Source of the DNA: an uncultured Alphaproteobacteria bacterium
GTDB taxonomy: Bacteria > Pseudomonadota > Alphaproteobacteria > RF32 > CAG-239
Assembly: GCA_944391355.1 (NCBI GenBank)
Contig: CALXTG010000014.1
Span: 1-29,246 of the forward strand
Length of the DNA stretch: 29,246 nucleotides
Reading direction: 5' to 3'
Shown here: one piece after another, positions 1 to 29,246 of the stretch
Layout of the letters: every line of letters starts with the position of its first letter
How positions within the stretch are numbered: the first letter of the stretch is position 1
Notes under the pieces: model-generated
Told to the model about the DNA's origin: nothing
The model's input: only the letters and a program-made list of their open reading frames with translations
The model's database searches: none
Translations under genes and position numbers: made by a program

Positions 1-1362
1 AAAGAAGGCGGCGGTGAAAGTTGTACCGTTAGAGGCGGCAGCGACGACGGAACGACTTATTATACCTCCTGTGTCTGTCCTTCCTCTTATACTAAATTGA
101 GTGACGGACAAATCTGTACCGGAACGGAATGCTCGTCAGCCGGTGAGAGATATTGCGACAGGTTTGAAAATATTCAATGTACCGGTGCTTATATGCTCTG
201 TAACAATAACCAAACCGGAGAAGGAGGTTTTTGTAATGACAAGGAGGGCAATAAATATACCGGTTGTTACTGCGATGAAGATATTTATCCCGAAACCGAT
301 GAGAGCTGTCGTTACCACTACGGAACCAATGCCGTTGGTTCCGGAACGAGTTGCAACAATGGCGAACGTTGGCGTTCCTGCTCTTGTGATGCAAGCTGCC
401 CATCGTCCCATCCTGATAAATCCTGCGGTTCTCTGGGAATTTCCGATGAAACTGATGATGGCTGCGGCGGTAAATGTTATAAATGTAACAGCTGTTCTCC
501 AACCTGTCAAAACGAAACTAATTGTCCTAACGGAACGAAAATCGTCGATAACGGATGCGGCGGTACCTGCTCCGTTTGCCAGAGCTGCACCCCGACTTGC
601 AAAAATGAAACCGGCTGTAAGAAATATGATACGCCAATCAGCAATGGCTGCGGCGGTACCTGTACCGTTTGCGGGGTTTATGATGACGGAACCGCTATCA
701 GCTTTGTTTTCAGTTTCGATAAAGCTAATACCTACGCATCAATTGAAACTAATGCATATAGCAACAATTCCCCTGCTTTTTACAGTATCAATTGGGGGGA
801 CGGAAGTATTGATACCTATCGTTCTACAGGTTATAAATCACATACATATCAGCAGGCCGGAAATTATACCGTTAAAATTGTCGGAAGCGTTGGTCATATT
901 AACCAAATTAAACCTGTAGATAAAATAACAGCTCTCAAAAAACTTAATTTAAGCACCGTAACATTTTTATATTATACATTTAGCGGAGGAAGTAACATAA
1001 TCGGAAGCATTCCGCCTCTCCCTCCTAAATTGGAGAGAGCTGATTGGGCTTTTCAGGCTTGCACCAAATTAACAGGTTCTGTTCCTAAGTTACCAAGCAG
1101 CTTAAAAAGAGCCCCATTTATGTTTTCCGGCTGCGAGGGACTGACCGGAAATATCCCTACGCTGTCCAGCGGTTTAATTGATGGTTCTTTCATGTTCAAC
1201 AGTTGCAGCGGACTGACAGGCGTTACGCCCGTAAATGGTAAATATCCTTATCAGTATTTATCTGCCATAGAAAGTAAGGCACATATGATAAACCTTTGTT
1301 CCGATGCCGTGCGACAGCATTTTCCAACCTCCTGGGGCGGGAGCTGCACGAGCTGTCAGTAA
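1..1362 (+). CDS. Secreted Cys-rich / PKD / 24-aa LRR protein, paralog 1 (5'-truncated by window edge)
   Basis: Frame is open from base 1 (KEGGGESCTVRGGSDDGTTYYTSCVCPSSY...), so the track's TTG at 97 is not the true start. Contains 6-Cys repeats (CSPTC...NGCGGTCxVC), PKD core (YSINWGDGS...SHTYQQAGNYTVKIVG, ~781-885), LRRs (1030-1230) and ends FPTSWGGSCTSCQ-TAA. Confidence 0.85.
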   Translation, partial: KEGGGESCTVRGGSDDGTTYYTSCVCPSSYTKLSDGQICTGTECSSAGERYCDRFENIQCTGAYMLCNNNQTGEGGFCNDKEGNKYTGCYCDEDIYPETDESCRYHYGTNAVGSGTSCNNGERWRSCSCDASCPSSHPDKSCGSLGISDETDDGCGGKCYKCNSCSPTCQNETNCPNGTKIVDNGCGGTCSVCQSCTPTCKNETGCKKYDTPISNGCGGTCTVCGVYDDGTAISFVFSFDKANTYASIETNAYSNNSPAFYSINWGDGSIDTYRSTGYKSHTYQQAGNYTVKIVGSVGHINQIKPVDKITALKKLNLSTVTFLYYTFSGGSNIIGSIPPLPPKLERADWAFQACTKLTGSVPKLPSSLKRAPFMFSGCEGLTGNIPTLSSGLIDGSFMFNSCSGLTGVTPVNGKYPYQYLSAIESKAHMINLCSDAVRQHFPTSWGGSCTSCQ

Positions 1363-1826: not shown

Positions 1827-4800
1827 TGACTTTCTCTCCTTTCTTATCGGGATTTTTATCAAAAATTTCCCCGATAATCGCAAACATCATCGGTACAAAC
1901 AAGGTAGCGACAAAAGTCGAAAGAATCATACCGCCGATCATACCGGTACCGATCGCATGCCGGCTCCCGGCCCCGGCTCCGGTACTGACAGCCAAAGGAA
2001 GCACGCCGAAAGTAAAGGCCAGAGAGGTCATGACAATCGGACGGAAACGCAGTTTGGCCGCTTCAATCGCCGCGGCGGCGTAAGATTTCCCGGCTTCCAC
2101 TTCCATAACGGCAAATTCGACAATCAAAATGGCATTTTTAGCGGCCAGACCGATTAAGGTTACCAAACCGACCTGGAAATAGAGGTCATTTTGAATGCCG
2201 CGCAGCCAAGTAGCCAACAATGCTCCCAATACGGCAAACGGCACGGATAAAATTACCACAAACGGCAGCGACCAGCGTTCATACTGCGCCGACAAAATCA
2301 GGAAGATCATAATCAGACCGAAGGCAAATGCCTGAGTTGACGCGCCGCCGGTCAATTTTTCCTGATAGGCGGAACCGATCCAGGACAGAGAAAAATCATC
2401 TCCGAGCACCTGATCGGCAACTTCTTCCATAGCGGCAATTGCCTGTCCGGAACTGTAGCCTTGCGCCGGATCGCCGAGAACTTTTGCCGCGGGAAAGATA
2501 TTGAAACGGTTGATCAGTTCCGGCCCGGTGATACGCTCAACGTTGATCAGCGTCGACAAGGGGATTAAAATCCCGTCATTGGATTTGACATAAACATAGC
2601 GCAAATCATCCGGCGAACGGCGGAATTTGCTTTCCGATTGAACCGTTACCCGGAAATTGCGGCCGTAATAAGTGAAGTCATTGACATACAAACTGCCGAA
2701 AGTGCTCTGCATAACCGAATAAATCGCATTAATCGGCACATTCAGAACCCGGGCTTTTTCACGATCCAGATCAATGCGATACTGCGGCGTACTGACCGAA
2801 AAAGTGGTTTTGACATTGTTCAGCGCCGGATGCTTGTTAGCGGCGTCTATCAGCTCCTGCGTTTTGGCCATCAGCTCTTCGCTGCTTTTGCCGCCTTTGT
2901 TCTGAACATAACCTTCAAAACCGCCGGTCATGCTCATCCCCATAATCGGCGGCATACTGAAAGCAAAACCCAATCCTTCGGGACGGCTCATGCCCATCTG
3001 CGTATATTTTGCTGCCAGAGCTTCCGCCGCTTGTCCGGGCTGTTTGCGCTGTTCCCAGTCTTTTAGGACAATAAAGCTGATTCCCGAATAGGTATTCTGC
3101 GTCGAAGACAGCATATTAAAACCGTTAATCGTCAAAATATCTTCAACCTGCGGATCATCTCTGACTTCTGCCGATACTTTGTCGGTGAAGGCCTTGGTTC
3201 GCGATAAAGACGCGGCAGGCGGCATACTATAAGACATCAACAGCGATCCCTGATCTTCATTCGGCACCAAACCGCCGGGAATAATTCGGAATAAAGCGCC
3301 GATAGCGGCCAACACGGCCAAGAAACCGAGAATCGCCGTTTTGCGGTGAGATAAAAAGAATTTAACCCCGGCCAGATACCAGTCGGTTACTTTTTCAAAA
3401 CCGTTGTTAAACCAACGGAAAAATAAAGGAGTCGGCCGGTCGGCATGTCCGGGTTTAATCAACAGCGCGCAAAGCGCCGGGGTTAAAGACAAAGCGACAA
3501 AAGCCGAAATCAGCACCGAAATGGCAATGGTTACCGCAAACTGACGATACATGACGCCGGTCATGCCGCCCAGAAAGGCAATCGGCAGAAACACCGAAGA
3601 CAAAACCAATGCCACGGCAACCACAGGCCCCGAAACTTCTTTCATTGCTTTGACGGCTGCTTCGCGCGGCGATAACTTTTCCTCGCTCATCAGCCGCTCG
3701 ACGTTTTCCAATACGATAATCGCATCGTCAACAACAATACCGATTGCCAGAATCAAGCCGAACAACGTCAGCAGATTGATTGAAAAACCGAGCACATACA
3801 TTCCGGCAAAAGCGCCGATAATCGAAACCGGAACCGCCAAAATCGGAATCAGGGTAGCGCGGAAATTTTGCAAAAACAGATAGACGACCAGAATAACCAG
3901 CAAAACCGCTTCAAAAAAGGTGTGAATCACTTCATTAATCGATACATTTACAAACAAAGTCGTATCATAAGGAATGCTGTAAGTTATCCCCTCGGGAAAA
4001 TTTTTGGAAAGGCGTTCCATGGCTGCCTTAACCTCGCGGGACACTTCCAGAGAATTGGCTCCCGATTGCAGATAGATCGCAAAAGCGACGGCATCTTCCC
4101 CGTTAATCTGAGAGCTGACGCTGTAATCCTGAGCGCCGAGTTCAATACGCGCGACGTCTTTCAAACGCAGCATAGCTCCCGACGAATCGCTTTTCAGGAT
4201 GATATTGCCGAATTCTTTTTCATCAACCAGACGGCCTTTGGTATTTACCGAATAGGTATAAGGCTGATACTCGTCCATCGGTTCCTGACCGAACTGGCCG
4301 GCGGCAAACTGCGAATTCTGCTCCTGAATCGCAGCAATGACATCCGGCGGGGTAAGGTTATAATCCGCCAATTTATCGGGACTGAGCCAGATGCGCATTG
4401 AATAGTCCTGGCTGGCAAACAGCGAAGCATCGCCAACACCTTTGATACGCTTTATCTCATCAATCACATTTAAAAGGGCATAGTTGCTGACATAAACCGA
4501 ATCATATTTTTCGCTGTTTGACTTCATAACAACAACAGAAAGAATATTGTTAGATTTTTCCTGAACCGTAACACCCATTTTGGTTACTTCCGAGGGAAGT
4601 TTGGACATGGCGGCCTGGACTTTATTGTTGACGTCAATCGTCGCCTGTTCGGGATCTGTGCCGATTTCAAAAACCACACCGATTGTCAGATATCCGGAAG
4701 AAGTGGCCGTCGAATACATATAAATCATATTCTTAACGCCGTTAATAGCCTGCTCAAGCGGCGCCGCTACGGTATCGGCCAAGACTTCCGCCGTCGCTCC

Positions 4801-4953
4801 GGGATAAGTCGCGGAAATTTGGATTTCGGGAGAAACAATGTTCGGATATTGCTCCACCGGCAGAATTTTCATTGACACCAAACCGGCGAGAACCACTATC
4901 AGCGAAATAACCGTCGCGAAAATCGGTCTTTTAATAAAAAACTCGGAAAACAT
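1819..4953 (-). CDS. RND (HAE1, AcrB/MexB-like) efflux permease
   Basis: 1044 aa. FFIKRPIFA N-terminus, IVVDDAIIVLENVER, KNAILIVEFA, RFRPIVMTSLAF motifs; AAGGAG RBS. Confidence 0.97.
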   Translation of the reverse strand: MFSEFFIKRPIFATVISLIVVLAGLVSMKILPVEQYPNIVSPEIQISATYPGATAEVLADTVAAPLEQAINGVKNMIYMYSTATSSGYLTIGVVFEIGTDPEQATIDVNNKVQAAMSKLPSEVTKMGVTVQEKSNNILSVVVMKSNSEKYDSVYVSNYALLNVIDEIKRIKGVGDASLFASQDYSMRIWLSPDKLADYNLTPPDVIAAIQEQNSQFAAGQFGQEPMDEYQPYTYSVNTKGRLVDEKEFGNIILKSDSSGAMLRLKDVARIELGAQDYSVSSQINGEDAVAFAIYLQSGANSLEVSREVKAAMERLSKNFPEGITYSIPYDTTLFVNVSINEVIHTFFEAVLLVILVVYLFLQNFRATLIPILAVPVSIIGAFAGMYVLGFSINLLTLFGLILAIGIVVDDAIIVLENVERLMSEEKLSPREAAVKAMKEVSGPVVAVALVLSSVFLPIAFLGGMTGVMYRQFAVTIAISVLISAFVALSLTPALCALLIKPGHADRPTPLFFRWFNNGFEKVTDWYLAGVKFFLSHRKTAILGFLAVLAAIGALFRIIPGGLVPNEDQGSLLMSYSMPPAASLSRTKAFTDKVSAEVRDDPQVEDILTINGFNMLSSTQNTYSGISFIVLKDWEQRKQPGQAAEALAAKYTQMGMSRPEGLGFAFSMPPIMGMSMTGGFEGYVQNKGGKSSEELMAKTQELIDAANKHPALNNVKTTFSVSTPQYRIDLDREKARVLNVPINAIYSVMQSTFGSLYVNDFTYYGRNFRVTVQSESKFRRSPDDLRYVYVKSNDGILIPLSTLINVERITGPELINRFNIFPAAKVLGDPAQGYSSGQAIAAMEEVADQVLGDDFSLSWIGSAYQEKLTGGASTQAFAFGLIMIFLILSAQYERWSLPFVVILSVPFAVLGALLATWLRGIQNDLYFQVGLVTLIGLAAKNAILIVEFAVMEVEAGKSYAAAAIEAAKLRFRPIVMTSLAFTFGVLPLAVSTGAGAGSRHAIGTGMIGGMILSTFVATLFVPMMFAIIGEIFDKNPDKKGEKVNV

Positions 4954-4971
4954 TGTCTTCTCCTTCAGGGA

Positions 4972-6132
4972 CTATTGAGCGGCAGATGCAGTTTCGGTTT
5001 CGTTAAAAACCGGATTAACCTGCTGACCGGGGCGGACTTTCATCAGTCCGCTGACCAAAACGACATCACCGGGGGTTAAGCCGCTGTCAATAATCCAGCC
5101 GCGCGGCGTGGTAAAACCGGTTGACACATTAACAGCTTCAACCTGATTCTGCGCATTCAGGCGGTAAACATACGGGCTTTTGGCGCCTTGCATAACCGCT
5201 TCCTGCGGCAGGACAATCGCATCTTTGCGAATCAGCCCCTCAAGAACAATACGGCCAAACTGACCGGGAAGAATTTTACGTTCGGGGTTGGGGAAAACAG
5301 CCCGCAGTTTAATCGTGCCGGTCTGCTCGTCAATGGAGGGGTTGATAAAATCTATTTTTCCTTCCCGGTCATAAAAACTGTCATTGCCGAATTTAAGGCG
5401 GGCAAAGACATCACTGCGGCGGCTGCCGTTGGAAGTGACGATTTTGCCGCTGTCGACCAGAGAACCTAACTTAAAGGCATCATTGTCGGCTGCCGAGAAA
5501 ATTACATAAATCGGATCAAGCTGGGTAATATGAGTCAACAGGCTGTCATTTGCCGAAGTACCGATCAAACTCCCTTCCGACTGGGTTTCCATGCTGGTGA
5601 TGCCACTGATCGGCGCGGTAACCGTCGTATAGTCAAGATTCAACTGCGCCGCTTGAACTTCGGCTTCGGCCAAGGCTGTCGTCGCTTTTAAAGAATCCAG
5701 ATTGGCGCGGGCTTCATCGCGGGATTTTTCACTGACAATCCGGTCCTTAAACAATTTATCAATGCGCAGCCATTGGGTTTCGGCCGCTTTTAACTGCGCC
5801 TGTTCCTGTGATAATTTGGCTTTTGCCTGAGCCAGCTGAACTTTATAAGGTTCGGGATCAATTTGAAATAAAATATCGCCGGCGTTAACCGGGGAGCCTT
5901 CGACATAGTTTCTTTTAAGAAGAATGCCGCCGACACGAGCCCGGACTTCCGTTTCCTTCGATCCCTGAGCACGCGCGGAAAATTCAAAACTTAAGGGAAT
6001 GTCTTCAGCTGCGGTTCTGACCGCCTCAACCGAGGGAACAGCCGTTTCCGTCCGGGCGGCATCTTCCTTTTTACAGGCAGACAAAGCCAGCATTGCGGCA
6101 GCCGCGATACAGAATTTATTTCTTGACAACAT
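4972..6132 (-). CDS. RND periplasmic adaptor (membrane fusion protein, AcrA/MexA-like), lipoprotein
   Basis: Lipobox LSAC, EVRARVGGILLKRNYVEG, LDYTTVTAPISG, ERKILPGQF motifs; directly upstream of the RND permease. Confidence 0.95.
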   Translation of the reverse strand: MLSRNKFCIAAAAMLALSACKKEDAARTETAVPSVEAVRTAAEDIPLSFEFSARAQGSKETEVRARVGGILLKRNYVEGSPVNAGDILFQIDPEPYKVQLAQAKAKLSQEQAQLKAAETQWLRIDKLFKDRIVSEKSRDEARANLDSLKATTALAEAEVQAAQLNLDYTTVTAPISGITSMETQSEGSLIGTSANDSLLTHITQLDPIYVIFSAADNDAFKLGSLVDSGKIVTSNGSRRSDVFARLKFGNDSFYDREGKIDFINPSIDEQTGTIKLRAVFPNPERKILPGQFGRIVLEGLIRKDAIVLPQEAVMQGAKSPYVYRLNAQNQVEAVNVSTGFTTPRGWIIDSGLTPGDVVLVSGLMKVRPGQQVNPVFNETETASAAQ

Positions 6133-6363
6133 CTTCTCTCCTAACCATGCGATTTATTTAAATAATTTACTTCGTCGAATTTACTAGAGCTGCAATAAAA
6201 AGCAATAAAAATCGGGCTTATTTACACTGTAAATTATCTGCTAAAGCTTGAAAAAGCAAAGTTGCTGATTAGCTATATTGCAGCTGGCTTATTACGAGCA
6301 GGACTTAACAGAGCTACATTCAATATTTTTAATTATATAACCCAATATACAAGGAGATTTACT

Positions 6364-6954
6364 ATGGTAGATGAAGTACAAGGCGTTCGTTATCCGACAT
6401 TTGCATTCCAGACCGGCGGCGTCGGCCAGGCCGATGAGGGCATTCCCCCGCAACCGTTTGAAACTTTCTGTTATGATTCGGCGCTGCTGCAGGCAAAAAT
6501 CGAAAACTTTAACGTTGTTCCCTATACTTCGGTTTTGCCCAAAGAATTATACGGCAATATTAAACCCCTGACTGACGACATTGTTAAACAGTTCAAACAC
6601 GGTGCGGTTTTGGAAGTTATCATGGCCGGCAACGGTGCCAGCCGTGATGACCACAAGGCTATCGCCACCGGTATCGGCGTTTGCTGGGGTAAAGACAAAA
6701 ACGGCGAACTCATCGGCGGCTGGGCTGCTGAATATGTTGAATATTTTGATACTTTCATTGATGATGAAATTGCAAAGACTCATTGCGAAATGTGGCTGAA
6801 CAAATCATTGCAGCATGAACTGGATATCCGCGGCGTTGAAAAACACAGCGACTTCCAGCTGTATCACAATTATCTGAACATTACCCAGCAATTCGGTTAC
6901 AGCCTGACCTGCCTGGGTTTCCTGAACTTCCAGCATGCCGCTCCCGCCAAATAA
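6364..6954 (+). CDS. aaxB: Pyruvoyl-dependent arginine decarboxylase (Chlamydia AaxB-type)
   Basis: ATG at 6364 after [41 protein letters not shown] includes the Thr-Ser self-cleavage site; [19 protein letters not shown]. Both strings match chlamydial AaxB as I recall it. Confidence 0.9.
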
Positions 6955-6967
6955 ACCGGAAGCATTT

Positions 6968-7008
6968 AATCTGCCGCAGAAGGAGCTTTTCCTTCTGCCC
7001 GGCAGGTT
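6968..7008 (+). other. Intercistronic stem-loop between aaxB and aaxC
   Basis: CTGCC-GCAGAAGGA-gcttt-TCCTTCTGC-cc-GGCAG followed by a broken T-tract. Confidence 0.6.
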
Positions 7009-7042
7009 TGATTTTGCAATAAATTAACAAAAGGATAAAACA

Positions 7043-8536
7043 ATGGCTGATAAACAAATAAAAACCGCCGCTGTTCCTGCCGGTTCACCCGAAAAAACCA
7101 ATCCCGGCGGATTGGGCGTTTTCGCGCTGGCCAGTATCGTCGTCAGCTCGATGATCGGCGGCGGTATTTACAGTCTACCTCAAAATATGGCGGCAGGCGC
7201 TTCGGCCGGTGCCGTTCTTCTGGCATGGATTATTACCGGTATCGGTATTTATTTCATTGCCAATACGTTCAGTATTCTTTCGATGGCCAAACCTAATCTG
7301 ACGACCGGTATATACTCTTACAGCCGCGCCGGTTTCGGCCCTTATGTCGGTTTTACGATCGGCTGGTCCTACTGGTTGTGCCAGGTCTGCGGAAACGTCG
7401 GCTATGCCGTTATTACCATGGACGCCCTCAACTATTTCTTTCCGCCTTATTTTGCCGGCGGAAACAATCTGGCCTCAATTATCGGCGGTTCGCTGATTAT
7501 CTGGGGCTTTAACTATCTGGTTCTGAAAGGGATCAAACAAGCCACCGTTGTCAATATGATCGGCACCGTGGTTAAAATCGTTCCGCTGATTTTGTTCATT
7601 ATCATTTTGGCCTTTGCGTTCAGTCCGGCCAAATTCGATTTTGACTTCTGGGGCGAAGCTATTTCAACCAAGGCCAAACTGGGCGGTCTCGGAACCCAGA
7701 TTAAAAGCACCATGCTGGTAACTTTGTGGGCTTTCATAGGTATTGAAGGCGCTGTCGTCATGTCTAACCGCGCCAGAGCGGCCAGCGACGTCGGTAAAGC
7801 CACCCTGCTCGGCTTCCTCGGCTGTCTGGCTATTTATATCCTGCTGTCGCTGCTGCCTTACGGCTATATGTCACAGGCCGAGCTGGCTACTGTCGCCAAT
7901 CCTTCTACCGCCGGCGTATTGGAAAAAGTCGTCGGACCTTGGGGCGCATGGCTGATGAATATCGGCCTGTTGGTTTCGGTTTTAACCAGCTGGCTGGCCT
8001 GGACAATGGTTACGGCCGAAATTCCGCAGGCTGCAGCTCAGAACGGAACTTTCCCCAAAGAATTTGCCAAAGAAAACGAACACGGCTCACCGTCGGTTTC
8101 TCTCTGGGTTACTTCCGGCATGATGCAGCTGTTTATTCTGCTGGTTTATTTTTCAAATAATGCCTGGAATACCATGCTGAGCATTACGGGTGTCATGGTT
8201 TTGCCGGCTTACTTTGCTTCCTGCGCTTATTTATGGAAAATCTGCGAAGACGGCGAATATCCGGCCAATATCGTGGTTAAACGTTCGGCAGCCCTGATTA
8301 CCGGGGTTCTCGGCGCAGTTTATGCCTTATGGCTGATCTATGCCGCCGGATTGAACTACCTGATGATGGCAGTTGTCATTGTGGCACTCGGTATTCCCGT
8401 TTATATCTGGGCCCGCCGCCAGTCCGCTCCGGGCGAAAAAGCCTTTACGCGCGGAGAATGCTGGCTGGCTTCGGTTCTGGTTATTATTGCTTTATGGGCG
8501 ATTTATGCCTTTGCCCGCGGCATTGTAACCATCTGA
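7043..8536 (+). CDS. aaxC: Arginine/agmatine antiporter (APC superfamily, Chlamydia AaxC-like)
   Basis: 497 aa, very hydrophobic. SSMIGGGIYSLPQNMA, GNVGYAVITMDALNYFFPPYF, MLVTLWAFIGIEGAVV motifs; downstream of the decarboxylase. Confidence 0.88.
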   Translation: MADKQIKTAAVPAGSPEKTNPGGLGVFALASIVVSSMIGGGIYSLPQNMAAGASAGAVLLAWIITGIGIYFIANTFSILSMAKPNLTTGIYSYSRAGFGPYVGFTIGWSYWLCQVCGNVGYAVITMDALNYFFPPYFAGGNNLASIIGGSLIIWGFNYLVLKGIKQATVVNMIGTVVKIVPLILFIIILAFAFSPAKFDFDFWGEAISTKAKLGGLGTQIKSTMLVTLWAFIGIEGAVVMSNRARAASDVGKATLLGFLGCLAIYILLSLLPYGYMSQAELATVANPSTAGVLEKVVGPWGAWLMNIGLLVSVLTSWLAWTMVTAEIPQAAAQNGTFPKEFAKENEHGSPSVSLWVTSGMMQLFILLVYFSNNAWNTMLSITGVMVLPAYFASCAYLWKICEDGEYPANIVVKRSAALITGVLGAVYALWLIYAAGLNYLMMAVVIVALGIPVYIWARRQSAPGEKAFTRGECWLASVLVIIALWAIYAFARGIVTI

Positions 8537-9149: not shown

Positions 9150-9494
9150 TTACCCCAGCAGCTTGCCGGCAATGGCAACATCGGCGGCCGCAAGATCGGT
9201 AAACTCAATATTGATATTATTCAAATCCGCGGGAATTGCCGTATACAAAAATTCGGTCAGCAAACGGGCAAAACCTGCTTTATCCTTAAATCCGACCGAT
9301 TTCATTTCCGCAAGTATGCAGGGAGCCCCCAAATCGCCGCCAATACAGATATCGGGGTTGCTGTCAAGGGTGACAATAATATAATTTTTAGGTTTGTTCA
9401 GCTGAGCGGCAACAAACTCAACCGCATCATGCAAAAACATTTCCTTTTGCAGTTTATCAAGTTTAACATTGGTATGGACGGTTAAAAAAGGCAT
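9150..9494 (-). CDS. MIF / phenylpyruvate tautomerase family protein
   Basis: 114 aa, Met-Pro start (catalytic Pro1), MPFLTVHTN, KPKNYI, KSVG motifs; AGGAG RBS. Confidence 0.85.
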   Translation of the reverse strand: MPFLTVHTNVKLDKLQKEMFLHDAVEFVAAQLNKPKNYIIVTLDSNPDICIGGDLGAPCILAEMKSVGFKDKAGFARLLTEFLYTAIPADLNNINIEFTDLAAADVAIAGKLLG

Positions 9495-15665: not shown

Positions 15666-15694
15666 AAATCCCGCTTTTCAGCGGGATTTTTTTT
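15666..15694 (+). terminator. Intrinsic terminator
   Basis: AAATCCCGCT-tttc-AGCGGGATTT followed by a T-run. Confidence 0.8.
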
Positions 15695-15834
15695 GACAGA
15701 AAAAGGGGCCCGCCAAGTAAATATTTCTAAAAGTGAAAACAGCCGGGGTTTTGCGGCTGGTTTCGTTTGAGCTTCACAGCCCGTTTTGTTATCCTTTAAA
15801 CATAGACTTTGGCTCTTTTGTTGAGGGGATTACT

Positions 15835-17484
15835 ATGAAGAAACTTTTTTTAATTCTGTTTTCTTTGTTCTGGAGCTTTTCGGCTTCCTCTGCTCCTCTC
15901 AGCTTTGACATTCACACATCCAATGAGCCAAAGTCTATGCAAGTTGCCAAAGTATATTTTCTTCCCGACTGGAAAGATAAGGGAATGTTTTGGGATGGGG
16001 CAGATGAAAAACCCTGTACCGAAGCCTGTCCGCAAAAGACGGACTATGATTGTAAATACGGGACCGAAAGCTATGTCAACGGCTGCGGGTTAACCTGTTC
16101 GCGCTGCGTTGAATGTTCCGGCTGCGATGAACAAGGCTATACTTTAAGCGAATGTCCAACCGGCGGGGTTTGTCTGAATGACTGTTGTAACAAACTTTAT
16201 AAACTCACAGATTGCAACAGCGGTTATATTTTGGAAAACATGGCTTGTCGGGTGGAAAACTGTACGGAGAATGCCTCTTTATGCGACAGTGCCACCGAGA
16301 AATGCGTCAACGGCCAATGTGTTGAAAAGGACTGCACGGAATATCCGGATAAATGCGGAAGTAATCAAGTTTGTGTTAATGGAGAGTGTATTGCCAAAGA
16401 CTGCAACAATACGCCCTCACTCTGTACCGCTACCGAGAAATGCCAATTGCAGAACGGGGTTTATAAATGTGTCTGCAGCCCGACTTGCAGCGATGAAAGC
16501 GACTGTTCTAACGGTACCGAAACTATTGCCAACGGCTGCGGCGGTACCTGCACCGTTTGCGCCGCATGTAAACCGACTTGCAGAGACGTGTCTGAGCGGG
16601 ATTGTCTGTTTCGGGATCGATATGATAAAATTGATGACGGCTGTTACGGTTCCTGCAATATTTGCGGCAAAAATAATGACGGTTATGATGGGACGGCAAT
16701 TATTTTTACCTTCAGCCCCGATGCCGATAACGTTGAACTGACACTGCCAACTTATTCGTTATCCTGGGAGAGCCCTTCCTATACGGTTGACTGGGGAGAC
16801 GGAACCATTGACAGAGATATAACCGCCGACAAACCTAAGCATACTTATGCGATAGCCGGAAATTACGATGTCAAAATCACCGGAAGAGTGATTTCTCTTG
16901 TGAGTTTTCCTAAAACCTTTGTCCGCTATGATTATAATTTGCAGCAGGTAAATTTGGTTACTTTCATAACCGAAATAAAACGGCTGGATCTCAGTACCGT
17001 AAGGGCTTTATCCCAAACCTTTGACGGCGGAAAAAACATCCGCGGCAGTATTCCGCCCCTGCCGGCAGATTTGCGCGAGGGTTATCGAGCTTTTTGGGAA
17101 TGTTCTCAATTAAGCGGAAATCTTCCTAAACTCCCCGAAGGTTTCCAAAATGCCATGCAGATGTTTGCCGGCTGCAGCGGATTGACAGGAACCATTCCCG
17201 AGATGCCTGAAAGTCTGGCTGACGGGAGCGGAATGTTCCGCGGCTGCAGCGGCTTAACCGGCAATATACCACGGTTACCCAACAGACTAACTGACGTCAG
17301 CTATATGTTTGAAGATTGCCGCGGATTAAGCGGAGTCACTCCGGTTAACGGCCAATATCCTTATCAATATTTGCAAAATTTTGAGGATTACCGCGGCTAT
17401 ATTAATGCGGTAACCGGCTGTTCTGATACGGTGCTCAGCAAGTTTCCCGAATCTTGGGGCGGAAGCTGCAGAAACTGTCAGTAA
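15835..17484 (+). CDS. Secreted Cys-rich / PKD / 24-aa LRR protein, paralog 2 (complete, 549 aa)
   Basis: ATG at 15835 after GAGGGG; signal peptide MKKLFLILFSLFWSFSASS. Cys-rich region 16015-16665, PKD core 16780-16884 (YTVDWGDGT...KHTYAIAGNYDVKITG), four LRRs 17071-17343, ends FPESWGGSCRNCQ. Confidence 0.9.
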   Translation: MKKLFLILFSLFWSFSASSAPLSFDIHTSNEPKSMQVAKVYFLPDWKDKGMFWDGADEKPCTEACPQKTDYDCKYGTESYVNGCGLTCSRCVECSGCDEQGYTLSECPTGGVCLNDCCNKLYKLTDCNSGYILENMACRVENCTENASLCDSATEKCVNGQCVEKDCTEYPDKCGSNQVCVNGECIAKDCNNTPSLCTATEKCQLQNGVYKCVCSPTCSDESDCSNGTETIANGCGGTCTVCAACKPTCRDVSERDCLFRDRYDKIDDGCYGSCNICGKNNDGYDGTAIIFTFSPDADNVELTLPTYSLSWESPSYTVDWGDGTIDRDITADKPKHTYAIAGNYDVKITGRVISLVSFPKTFVRYDYNLQQVNLVTFITEIKRLDLSTVRALSQTFDGGKNIRGSIPPLPADLREGYRAFWECSQLSGNLPKLPEGFQNAMQMFAGCSGLTGTIPEMPESLADGSGMFRGCSGLTGNIPRLPNRLTDVSYMFEDCRGLSGVTPVNGQYPYQYLQNFEDYRGYINAVTGCSDTVLSKFPESWGGSCRNCQ

Positions 17485-26342: not shown

Positions 26343-28208
26343 CTAAAAGAGTTTCAGAATACTCTGCGCCGAACGGGAAGCCAGGGACAGCGAGTTAACC
26401 GCCAGCTGCTGAGCAGTTTGCAGAGCCAGCATATTGGCAGATTCCTGATTCATATCGGCAAGCGTCAGTTTATCGGCGCCTTCTTCCAGAACATTTATCA
26501 AATTCTCGGTAAAATCCTGCCTTGTGGTAACAATTGAATAATAGTTTCCGTATTCCGCGGCAAAGCTTCGTAATACCCCTATTGCGTTTTCAAGTTCGGA
26601 GATTGATTTTTCAATCGCATCTTTATTTTCCCATTCACGCGCAGCAATTTTCAAATTATTACTGTCGGCTTTGACGCCTTTAATTTCAATTACTGATGAA
26701 CGGTCTTCATTAAAATTGATTTTCAGGCTCTGGCCGTCAAGAAGATTTATCCCTTTATAAGAAGCATCACCAATCAGAAAATCATACTGCCGCAGGATTT
26801 CATTGAACTGTTTTTCTTGGGCGAGACTCCCGGCATATCCTTTCTCCTGTGAAGGCCGGCGCGATATTTGCTGCATATACGCGGCAAAATCTGCAAATAT
26901 CTGGGCAAAGGCGGCCGAAGTTGATGCCTTTTGCGAAGTGTCTTCCGTAAAACCATGTGCGGCCAGACTGTTGCCATAACCATTGAAATCCGACTTAACT
27001 CCTCCGGCAGGAACCGTATACAAACCGCTCCGGGTATAAATTTTGGCACCGGCAACACCGTCAAATATTGTATCATAGCCCCATCCGTCACCGCCTAAAA
27101 ATGAGAAAGCAAAATTTGCTTTTATATTCAGGTTTATTTCTGCCTGAGACGAAAGAAGATTTACATTTGCCGCTATCAATCCGTGCGCATAATTTTGTTC
27201 CGTCGTGACATTGATTTTTGACGCTCCGGATAAGTTAAAAGTGCCATAGCCCAAAGCATAACTTTCGTATCCTTGGGTATAGACATTGACAACGGCATTG
27301 TCAGAAAGATCCATGGTTGAACCGGTAACGGCAAAACCGCCGAATGAACCTTTGGAGATATTCAGTACCGCTCCCTGTCGCAGGGCAAAGCGGCTGCTGC
27401 TTATTCCGTAAAAACGGTTGGGATGTACATCATCCCGGGTTGTGACAATACCGGTATCTCCGATATTTACCGTCCCCTGCAGTTCAAAACCATATCTCTG
27501 CTCAGAACTAATGCCGCTGACACCGGCTGTTCCGCCGCCGGAACCGTCAATATCAACTTTTATATTGACATCTTTGATGACAACGTTATCACCTTTGATT
27601 TTTACTGCCGCCTGTGAACCGCGGGTGTCACTTTTATAATTTATCTGTAAATCGGCAATTAAGGCATTATCCTTAACGGTCAAACCATCGGCAGGACGAG
27701 CGGTAAAATCAAAAGAAATTGAGGAATATTCCGCTGATTGGTTCAAATATTTTGCCCCCACCAAAGACTGCCCGGCATTTAATATCAGATTCTGATTTCC
27801 GGTTATACGGATATGACCGTCAACAACAATCAACCCTTCCTTGCCGGAATTGATTGCGGCAATCAATTCTTCTTCCGTACGCACCGTGGCAACAACATCT
27901 CCGGAGGTTTCGAGCGCTTGGTTAGCGACCGCCTTGGCCTGTTCAAGGAATTTTGTGCCGGAGTCAATCGCTTCAGAAGCCGCTTTAATCGTCTGTATTC
28001 CCTGCGACATAGCGTCTAACAAAGCGGTCAAATCGGCGGCACGGTTGTTTAACGAAGAAGCGGTATAATAAGAAGAGGGATTATCGATTGCCGAAGAAAC
28101 TTTAAGGCCGGTCGCTAAGCGATTTTGTACAATATCCTGCCGGCTTGCAATATTCTGCAAGCTCAACAAATTACTGCGCATTGACGCTGTTAACGAAATC
28201 CCAGACAT
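26343..28208 (-). CDS. Flagellin-family protein with a large beta-rich insert
   Basis: Flagellin N-terminus (RSNLLSLQ...RLATGLKVSSAIDNP) and C-terminus (DASYKGINLL...LTLADMNQESANMLALQTAQQLAVNSLSLA...ILKLF); non-flagellin insert at ~aa 101-463. Confidence 0.9.
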   Translation of the reverse strand: MSGISLTASMRSNLLSLQNIASRQDIVQNRLATGLKVSSAIDNPSSYYTASSLNNRAADLTALLDAMSQGIQTIKAASEAIDSGTKFLEQAKAVANQALETSGDVVATVRTEEELIAAINSGKEGLIVVDGHIRITGNQNLILNAGQSLVGAKYLNQSAEYSSISFDFTARPADGLTVKDNALIADLQINYKSDTRGSQAAVKIKGDNVVIKDVNIKVDIDGSGGGTAGVSGISSEQRYGFELQGTVNIGDTGIVTTRDDVHPNRFYGISSSRFALRQGAVLNISKGSFGGFAVTGSTMDLSDNAVVNVYTQGYESYALGYGTFNLSGASKINVTTEQNYAHGLIAANVNLLSSQAEINLNIKANFAFSFLGGDGWGYDTIFDGVAGAKIYTRSGLYTVPAGGVKSDFNGYGNSLAAHGFTEDTSQKASTSAAFAQIFADFAAYMQQISRRPSQEKGYAGSLAQEKQFNEILRQYDFLIGDASYKGINLLDGQSLKINFNEDRSSVIEIKGVKADSNNLKIAAREWENKDAIEKSISELENAIGVLRSFAAEYGNYYSIVTTRQDFTENLINVLEEGADKLTLADMNQESANMLALQTAQQLAVNSLSLASRSAQSILKLF

Positions 28209-28573: not shown

Positions 28574-29246
28574 ATGCAGAACAGATTTTATCTATTCTTT
28601 GCTGTTTGTGCTATGTTATTATTAGCCTGCGGCGTTTCAACAGTCGAAGCCCGAAGTCATTTCCTGCCGAATTATCAAACCGGGGGATTCAGCTTTGATA
28701 ATTCCGAAGATATTTCGGTAGCCTGTCCGACTTCTACTTTTGCTTATACGAAAGATAACTGTACTTATCCCAATACCCCGCAATATTCCTGCGGCGGCAG
28801 ATACCGCGTCTGCGGCTGTGACAGAGATTTTGCATATTCCGCTGCTCAATGCGAAGCCATGGGGAAAGTTGGCGGGGATCAATCTTGCACCGTCAGAGGC
28901 GGTTCCGACAGCGGAACGGTTTATTATACAACCTGCAAATGTCCGTCTTCTTATCCCAAGCTCACGACCGGGCAAAAATGCGTCGGCGGTACCGAATGTT
29001 CTTATGCCGGCGAAAAATACTGCGACAGCACCTCTCATATACAATGCGAAAGCAATTATAAAGTCTGCGACCAGAATAAATCGGGACGATCCGGTTCATG
29101 TACGGCCGGCGGTGTAACCAAATATATTGACTGTTACTGCGATGAAAATCTTTACCCGCAGACGAACGAAACCTGCAAGGCCGATTTCGGAGCCAACGCC
29201 GTCGTCAGCGGCGAAATCTGCGGCAATAACGAACGCGGTAAGTCTT
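28574..29246 (+). CDS. Secreted Cys-rich protein, paralog 3 (3'-truncated; missing from the ORF track)
   Basis: Open from ATG 28574 to the window end: MQNRFYLFFAVCAMLLLACGVSTVEARSHFLPNYQ...SCTVRGGSDSGTVYYTTCKCPSSYPKL...CYCDENLYPQTNETC. From 28865 it is homologous to paralog 1. Confidence 0.88.
   Translation, partial: MQNRFYLFFAVCAMLLLACGVSTVEARSHFLPNYQTGGFSFDNSEDISVACPTSTFAYTKDNCTYPNTPQYSCGGRYRVCGCDRDFAYSAAQCEAMGKVGGDQSCTVRGGSDSGTVYYTTCKCPSSYPKLTTGQKCVGGTECSYAGEKYCDSTSHIQCESNYKVCDQNKSGRSGSCTAGGVTKYIDCYCDENLYPQTNETCKADFGANAVVSGEICGNNERGKS

Follow-up and report, generated by a model that had tools for sequence, protein, structure and literature searches.

The 29,246-nucleotide stretch of DNA analysed here (the window) is an entire contig, C14, the longest in the metagenome-assembled genome (MAG) of an animal-gut alphaproteobacterium (1.61 Mb, 218 contigs, an estimated 88% complete with an estimated 2.2% contamination). 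It carries three genes, here called paralogs 1 to 3, of a family whose members share one plan: a signal peptide, a leader, a disulfide-rich stalk and an interchangeable C-terminal head. We conclude that these genes probably belong to a mix-and-match family, restricted to one lineage, of exported binding proteins that are braced by disulfides, share a sorting handle and carry exchangeable heads. In paralogs 1 and 2 the head consists of a PKD domain followed by leucine-rich repeats (LRRs). Sequence comparisons and structural models place it within a known, named family, the BspA family of LRR surface proteins, to which stalk and leader are additions.

Three paralogs with a shared architecture

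A first-pass annotation of the window listed three same-strand paralogs, and we located all of them as forward-strand open reading frames (ORFs; Table 1). The window is the entire contig. Paralogs 1 and 3 owe their truncation to breaks in the assembly, not to biology. Paralogs 1 and 2 align at 45% identity over 343 amino acids (aa) (E = 5e-85), across the 6-Cys modules, PKD domain, repeats and tail. The Cys-rich N-terminal region common to paralogs 1 and 3 is 56% identical over 127 aa (E = 6e-43). Both relationships had been proposed in the annotation, as had signal peptides for paralogs 2 and 3, in which a basic N-terminus, a hydrophobic core and a small-x-small site can be recognized by eye. 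A signal peptide starts every family member whose N-terminus is included.

Related sequences show what the truncated genes look like in full. An exact 127-bp overlap joins C14, at its start, to the end of contig C65. Paralog 1 matches protein P0026 (567 aa) at 100% identity along its entire 453 aa, and P0026 supplies the signal peptide and leader. The N-terminal 240 aa of P0164 (642 aa) match paralog 3 at 85% identity. What follows in P0164 differs from a PKD-LRR head and was not assembled in the MAG; it is modelled by AlphaFold2 (AF2) with a predicted local distance difference test score (pLDDT) below 50, and fold searches returned only noise-level β-helix-like matches (Z ≤ 6). Fold searches with the well-modelled Cys region of P0164 gave no match. 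The expectation that paralog 3 resembles paralog 1 throughout is not supported: its closest full-length relatives carry a non-LRR head. When the start of paralog 3 (28574-28675) is compared with residues 1-50 of P0164, signal peptide and leader length are wholly different up to the leader motif, from which point the two align. This pattern suggests recombination at the motif.

Each paralog had also been described as standing alone among housekeeping genes. That description holds for paralog 2, which has a periplasmic binding protein gene on one side and uvrA on the other, but not strictly for paralog 1, as C65 has another LRR-type paralog about 5 kb away.

The PKD-repeat head belongs to the BspA class

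The repeats of the head follow the consensus x-M-F-x-x-C-x-x-L-T-G-x-I-P-x-L-P-x-x-L-x4 with a strict 24-aa period. Across 107 repeats, F, C, L, G, P and L are near-invariant, and about ten positions per unit are variable. Copy number ranges from 1 to 13, with 3–4 repeats in the window copies and up to 13 in relatives. The Cys of each repeat is a framework residue of the BspA/TpLRR type of LRR, not a disulfide partner.

Several lines of evidence place this head. P0005, a paralog from the same genome, scores above the Pfam cut-offs (DUF285 39.3; PKD, PF00801/PF18911, 27.9 and 28.3), and full-length homologues that align end to end with the window copies score 65 for DUF285 and 62 for LRR_5 (P0020) or 42 for LRR_5 (P0009). 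In the AF2 model of paralog 2, the PKD domain has a pLDDT >83 and the repeats 90–96, and the best match to this model in the PDB is TpLRR (6mlx; E = 6e-5, probability 1.00). Matches in AFDB include clusters named 'BspA family leucine-rich repeat surface protein' (probability 1.00), several of which align from the PKD domain onward, and a 'PKD domain-containing protein' cluster that matches the paralog 2 PKD domain, where the WGDG motif is present. TM-scores of the fold matches are low because the query is multi-domain. The F-x-x-x-W-G-G cap is common to distant DUF285 proteins; the S-C-x-x-C-[QE] end is found only in this clade, some members of which lack it. A PKD domain, DUF285/LRR_5 repeats and a WGG cap together form the named and widespread plan annotated as BspA family LRR surface protein, which contradicts the earlier statement that no named system with this architecture was recognized.

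The PKD-repeat head is only one of several. Four genes in the genome carry it. Other heads include a small form of ~240 aa ending in EEKYWNGE, and arrays of EGF/EB-like units followed by an unassigned domain of ~400 aa. In related strains, Lcl_C-like heads stand on the same leader and stalk, and unassigned β-rich heads also occur in the family.

A common leader and a cysteine-rich stalk

The leader is marked by the motif A-[KR]-x-[HYQ]-[FW]-L-P-[DNH]-[WYF], which was found in 14 true family ORFs compared with 0.4 expected from shuffled sequences. It directly follows an A-x-A site in paralog 3, C133, P0031 and P0061, and lies 20–30 residues later in the others, which are most of the members. 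The leader is predicted to be disordered (AF2 pLDDT 29–40).

The unusual Cys density singled out in the first-pass annotation is borne out by the genome-wide distribution. The three window ORFs contain ~8–10% Cys, compared with a genome median of 1.03% (984 ORFs of ≥250 aa). Long family ORFs range from 6 to 13.6% Cys and make up 10 of the 12 most Cys-rich long ORFs. In paralog 2, the stalk has 38 Cys (an even number), the PKD domain none, each repeat one and the tail three; the stalk cysteines presumably pair as disulfides. AF2 models the stalk (~230 aa) as β-hairpin modules with a pLDDT of ~60–83, and searches of Pfam, Atlas and fold databases with it returned no match. Against named Cys-rich modules (EGF, EB, VSP-like), the window proteins had no profile match at E ≤ 1, and relatives gave only sub-threshold EB-module matches (16–21 bits against 24.3). 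ESM Atlas feature searches with the stalk and with a small family member yielded no usable match. The leader, the stalk and the terminal CxxC[QE] are the lineage-specific parts of these proteins. Elsewhere in the genome, C187 (1849-2985, – strand) encodes a secreted 379-aa protein with 7.9% Cys that has no leader motif and no sequence relationship to the family.

Family size and distribution

To count the family, we applied iterated hidden Markov models of its modules, together with a motif search, to all six-frame ORFs of the genome. This census gave 18 family ORFs or fragments with ~16 leader-bearing gene starts (the 14 motif-bearing ORFs plus one truncated and one variant copy), in line with the 'expanded, diversified repertoire' first suggested. 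Fourteen of the 18 touch contig ends, and further fragments are present in the list of Cys-rich ORFs. Some fragments are the two halves of a single gene (C65 with C14, and probably C108 with C126).

The leader and stalk of paralog 2 were recovered at 4–12 times the summed depth of the head in four independent gut runs, in which leader and stalk fell on short, fragmented contigs and the head on long ones. This pattern fits a multi-copy, conserved 5′ part, with the caveat that summed depth is not copy number. The family ranks among the main causes of broken assembly in these MAGs, and hence its copy number is underestimated in short-read bins.

The distribution is narrow. Leader and stalk were found only in the source genome and a relative of the same genus, with one weak match among 35 other genomes of the family-level lineage and none in 24 further genomes. 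A search of 40 genomes of the same taxonomic family did not recover the PKD-repeat head. For this last search the protein itself was the query; the Pfam DUF285 model had given no match in any genome, source and controls included. An exhaustive profile search for the leader among 1.84 billion (1.84e9) proteins recovered 30 cluster representatives, in which it is always N-terminal, at residues ~15–68. About 15 full-length homologues (44–94% identity) come from other metagenome assemblies, and each stands singly among housekeeping genes. The few homologues that carry a name derive from uncultured Alphaproteobacteria, and the gene is present in gut metagenomes of cattle, chicken, rat and other animals. 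The design of a Cys-rich part, PKD domain, repeats and WGG end recurs in a second alphaproteobacterial MAG, whose Cys modules are different.

A conserved upstream region

The region upstream of paralog 2 is 80–96% identical to those of three other family genes on C65 and C108. The upstream DNA common to paralogs extends over 110–240 bp and contains a TTGACA hexamer, a hairpin and a GAGGGG ribosome-binding site (RBS); several paralogs combine this region and RBS with an intact frame. A consensus scan called no sigma-70 promoter at the conserved TTGACA, so that the region is only a putative promoter. The hairpin is GC-rich and followed by a T-rich run; it matches no Rfam family and could be an attenuator or a regulatory RNA element.

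A physical link to diversity-generating retroelements

The genome contains two diversity-generating retroelements (DGRs), on C118 and C185, each with a reverse transcriptase (RT) gene beside an Avd homologue (Table 1). Differences between template repeat (TR) and variable region (VR) are concentrated at adenines. For the TR of C118, this is so for 11 of 13 mismatches with its cis VR and for 14 of 15 with a trans VR on C158; more diverged copies of the variable region are present on C170 and C193. For C185, 16 of the 21 differences (mismatches and gaps) fall at template adenines. The targets are proteins of 245–255 aa with a sub-threshold match to Lcl_C (31 bits against 34.9).

The family adjoins this system. 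On C193, C158 and C142, a small family member is followed within ~20 bp by the gene of a secreted Lcl_C (DUF1566-like) target. The same two-gene cassette recurs on other metagenome contigs (including L088, L089 and L090) with a 3-bp gap, and the cassettes are scattered among housekeeping genes. Moreover, a sub-threshold Lcl_C match lies behind leader and stalk in P0056, and Lcl_C-like sequence can be recognized by eye in P0160. Cassettes and Lcl_C-headed members thus tie the family physically to the hypermutated lectin system. Prediction of a complex between a small family protein and its Lcl_C cassette partner scored 0.00, which weighs neither for nor against such a complex.

These associations raise the possibility that the family consists of structural handles that present DGR-diversified Lcl_C lectins, the LRR-headed members being a side branch. 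The tight gene order of the cassettes, the adenine bias linking the C118 TR to the C158 VR, and the Lcl_C-like heads of P0056 and P0160 all favour this idea, but the LRR-headed paralogs of the window have no Lcl_C neighbour and match neither TR. We consider it quite unlikely as an account of the family. The TRs of C118 and C185 likewise match no LRR-type family gene on C14, C65 or C126; this, with the conservation of the head between hosts, leads us to reject DGR-driven mutagenesis of these LRR heads.

The C185 DGR has as its target a 473-aa protein (C185:21-1442, – strand; L082). It combines an N-terminal region of flagellin with an adhesive segment of pectate-lyase-like type and, at the C-terminus, an Lcl_C domain in which the VR lies; a flagellin C-terminus is absent. 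From its domains, we read it as a hypermutated lectin on an N-terminus of the flagellar export type.

Table 1. Coordinates of family genes and their parts in the window, and of associated elements on other contigs of the genome (contig named where it is not C14)
Feature	Position	Strand	Details
Paralog 1	1..1362	+	C-terminal 453 aa and stop of a ~567-aa gene; cut by contig start
Paralog 1, Cys-rich region common to paralog 3	1-378	+	
Paralog 1, 6-Cys modules	about 379-693	+	
Paralog 1, PKD domain	685-918	+	
Paralog 1, three 24-aa BspA-type repeats and WGG-SCxxCQ tail	937-1359	+	
Conserved upstream region of paralog 2	15693..15834	+	TTGACA 15693-15698; hairpin 15740-15759; GAGGGG RBS just before ATG
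Paralog 2	ATG 15835..17484	+	Intact
Paralog 2, signal peptide	15835..15894	+	20 aa, ends SSA; read by eye; AF2 helix 2-13, then disordered stretch
Paralog 2, leader	15895..16008	+	Motif AKVYFLPDW at 15946-15972
Paralog 2, disulfide-rich stalk	16009..16686	+	38 Cys; three 6-Cys units and EGF/EB-like C-x-NG-x-C units
Paralog 2, PKD domain	16687..16917	+	WGDG motif
Paralog 2, BspA/TpLRR-class solenoid	16978..17373	+	Cap and four 24-aa units
Paralog 2, C-terminal cap	17374..17484	+	YPYQYL segment, F-P-x-S-W-G-G, then S-C-x-x-C-Q, stop
Paralog 3, N-terminal 224 aa	ATG 28574..29246	+	Cut by contig end; signal peptide and Cys-rich region common to paralog 1
Paralog 3, motif ARSHFLPNY	28649-28675	+	Directly after A-x-A site
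DGR on C118	RT ~3823-5082; Avd 5330-5704; TR 5110-5226; VR 5831-5947		
DGR on C185	RT 1943-3250; Avd 1588-1956; TR 3290-3401; VR 25-138		
Two-gene cassettes	C193:8056-9461; C158:4338-5553; C142:11106-12520		

Export machinery and the type IVb pilus

The only secretin found in the genome lies in a type IVb pilus cluster (C141:1319-6135; L091), together with TcpQ/PilL-like and PilO-like genes. Substrates of type IVb pili are described as being secreted by means of a short and flexible stretch at the N-terminus in which an aromatic residue is critical and whose sequence is not conserved from one system to another (PMC9565799). By analogy, the family members might be soluble factors secreted through the pilus, their disordered aromatic leader docking on a minor pilin as in TcpF and CofJ, and not cell-bound adhesins. 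The leader fits the published description loosely: it is N-terminal, predicted to be disordered, carries conserved Y/F/W residues and stands at the mature N-terminus in some members. Such a segment is a weak and non-specific resemblance. In most members, the motif is displaced well beyond the signal-peptide site, and the family genes are scattered among housekeeping genes, with none in the part of the pilus cluster assembled on C141. Co-distribution does not discriminate, since PilO-like genes occur in 28 of 40 genomes of the same taxonomic family and the leader is confined to one genus. Taken together, these observations make pilus-mediated secretion of soluble factors a distinctly improbable explanation.

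Weighing the display interpretation

In our preferred interpretation, that of exported binding proteins with a shared handle, the Sec pathway would carry the proteins across the inner membrane and DsbA-type enzymes would oxidize the stalk in the periplasm, turning it into a rigid spacer. In keeping with such a route, the genome has two DsbA-like and two DsbD-like genes and one secretin. The common leader would act as a shared sorting or tethering handle, presumably beyond the periplasm, and the head would bind a ligand in the gut, which may lie on host surfaces, mucus, other microbes or particles of food. Diversity would arise by paralogy, module shuffling and changes in repeat number, rather than by DGR mutagenesis of the LRR. 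By analogy with BspA-type proteins, the family members may thus be adhesins or receptors.

A number of observations weigh against this interpretation. The window copies score below the Pfam cut-offs: for DUF285, P0002 reaches 11.4 against 25 and P0001 gives no hit, and PKD scores are 17–22.7 bits against cut-offs of 23.5–27 (PKD_4 in paralog 2, 22.7). The low DUF285 score is attributable to the presence of just 3–4 repeats. The Cys total of paralog 2 is 45, an odd number, so at least one thiol must be free. The first-pass annotation had raised the prospect of an expanded DsbA/DsbC set, but no such expansion was seen, and neither DsbB nor VKOR was found in the 88%-complete genome. An outer-membrane anchor, an autotransporter, any other known signal for surface display and a lipobox were not found, with the possible exception of paralog 3 for the lipobox. 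The expression search matched only runs of unknown library type, and no clearly RNA library holds the gene. Finally, the head of paralog 2 is nearly invariant across host animals (1–25 differences per 0.8–1.2 kb), which does not suggest a receptor engaged in an arms race.

A further explanation is that the ORFs are decaying or silent relics, or artefacts of assembly or contamination such as protist DNA binned into the MAG; most copies are indeed contig-end fragments, the contamination estimate is not zero, and gut protists commonly have Cys-rich proteins of EGF-like and BspA-like type (PMC2843621). Paralog 2, however, is intact between its two bacterial neighbours, and its signals are bacterial and its GC content normal. 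Many samples have yielded long bacterial contigs with intact, full-length homologues, and the fragmentation is explained by repeats (the exact overlap of C14 and C65 in the assembly graph, and raised depth over the repeated part). We regard this explanation as extremely improbable. The bacterial housekeeping genes that flank paralog 2 on the same contig lead us to reject eukaryotic contamination.

Returning to the display interpretation, one extension of it deserves mention, although we think it unlikely on present evidence: the FLPDW-type leader would be an undescribed, genus-specific sorting or tethering signal that directs the whole repertoire to a single place of display, on the cell surface or at the tip of the type IVb pilus. 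If so, LRR, lectin-like and β-rich heads on disulfide stalks, together with the subunits that partner the DGR-diversified Lcl_C lectins, would form a display system with a common handle, in which paralog shuffling is coupled to retroelement hypermutation. With or without this extension, the leader that the members have in common offers a compact, testable candidate for a new sorting signal. A stalk joined to varied heads would, moreover, be a way for a reduced genome to gain binding diversity through the shuffling of modules.

Genomic setting

The organism can be taken as Gram-negative because the window includes genes for AcrB, an HlyD-type fusion protein, FadL, GyrA, UvrA and a flagellin-like protein. 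In another part of the window (6262-8536 and 9150-9494), a pyruvoyl-dependent arginine decarboxylase gene adjoins an amino-acid permease gene, with a MIF/tautomerase-family gene nearby. An Rfam scan of the window found no known RNA.

Flagellin-like ORFs are exceptionally expanded, with 45 in the 1.6-Mb genome (one in the window at 26343-28208, – strand, and 44 others). Thirty-one of them have both flagellin termini and encode 380–744 aa; six are arranged in tandem on C28, and the 5′ ends of these ORFs are ~85–90% identical at the DNA level. A genome of ~1.6 Mb devotes a striking share of its coding capacity to three exported repertoires, namely the Cys-stalk family, the DGR-diversified lectins and about 45 flagellin-like genes. 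Small-genome alphaproteobacteria are widespread, yet uncultured, members of animal gut communities.

Comparison with known systems

Of the type IVb-pilus-secreted colonization factors, TcpF and CofJ (PMC9565799, PMC6048534) resemble the family in having a disordered, aromatic N-terminus and a pilus-bearing genome. They differ in that the family genes lie outside the pilus operon, show no sequence similarity to them and have a leader common to ~16 paralogs rather than to one substrate.

The partners of the small family members are themselves Lcl_C/DUF1566 C-type-lectin-like variable proteins of the DGR kind (PMC4159848, PMC5758913), with adenine-specific TR/VR differences. Unlike those proteins, the three paralogs of the window are not DGR targets. 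In the papers searched, which were not read with this point in mind, no conserved Cys-rich gene came up as the upstream partner of a variable protein.

Other parallels are to the head. BspA of Tannerella forsythia, LrrA of Treponema denticola and TpLRR of Treponema pallidum (6mlx), all of the LRR_5 type (PF13306), have repeats of ~23–24 residues with the same hydrophobic-x-x-C-x-x-L framework, and like the family they are exported by bacteria that live in association with hosts. For BspA and LrrA, exposure on the surface and binding activity are on record (PMC2843621). The family differs in its 3–4 repeats in the window copies, the preceding PKD domain, the ~230-aa stalk with 38 Cys, the lineage-specific leader and the terminal CxxC[QE], none of which is described for these three proteins. 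The PKD-bearing DUF285 (PF03382) proteins of the BspA family are also close in plan, sharing the order of PKD domain, DUF285-type repeats and WGG-type C-terminal cap. They are common in marine Bacteroidota, Firmicutes and Mollicutes, and include the secreted MbovP0145 of Mycoplasma bovis. In contrast to the family described here, they are low in Cys (~2–3%), are sorted by other means, for example type IX secretion system domains or lipoprotein signals, and lack both the FLPDW leader and the Cys stalk.

At the level of the repertoire, one counterpart is eukaryotic. The TvBspA family of Trichomonas vaginalis comprises 911 genes (PMC2843621) and is likewise a large set of TpLRR-type paralogs in a mucosal organism, varied in repeat number and modules. 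TvBspA proteins form a far larger family and consist mostly of LRR by length, whereas in the family described here the leader and stalk are the constant parts and the LRR is one of several heads.

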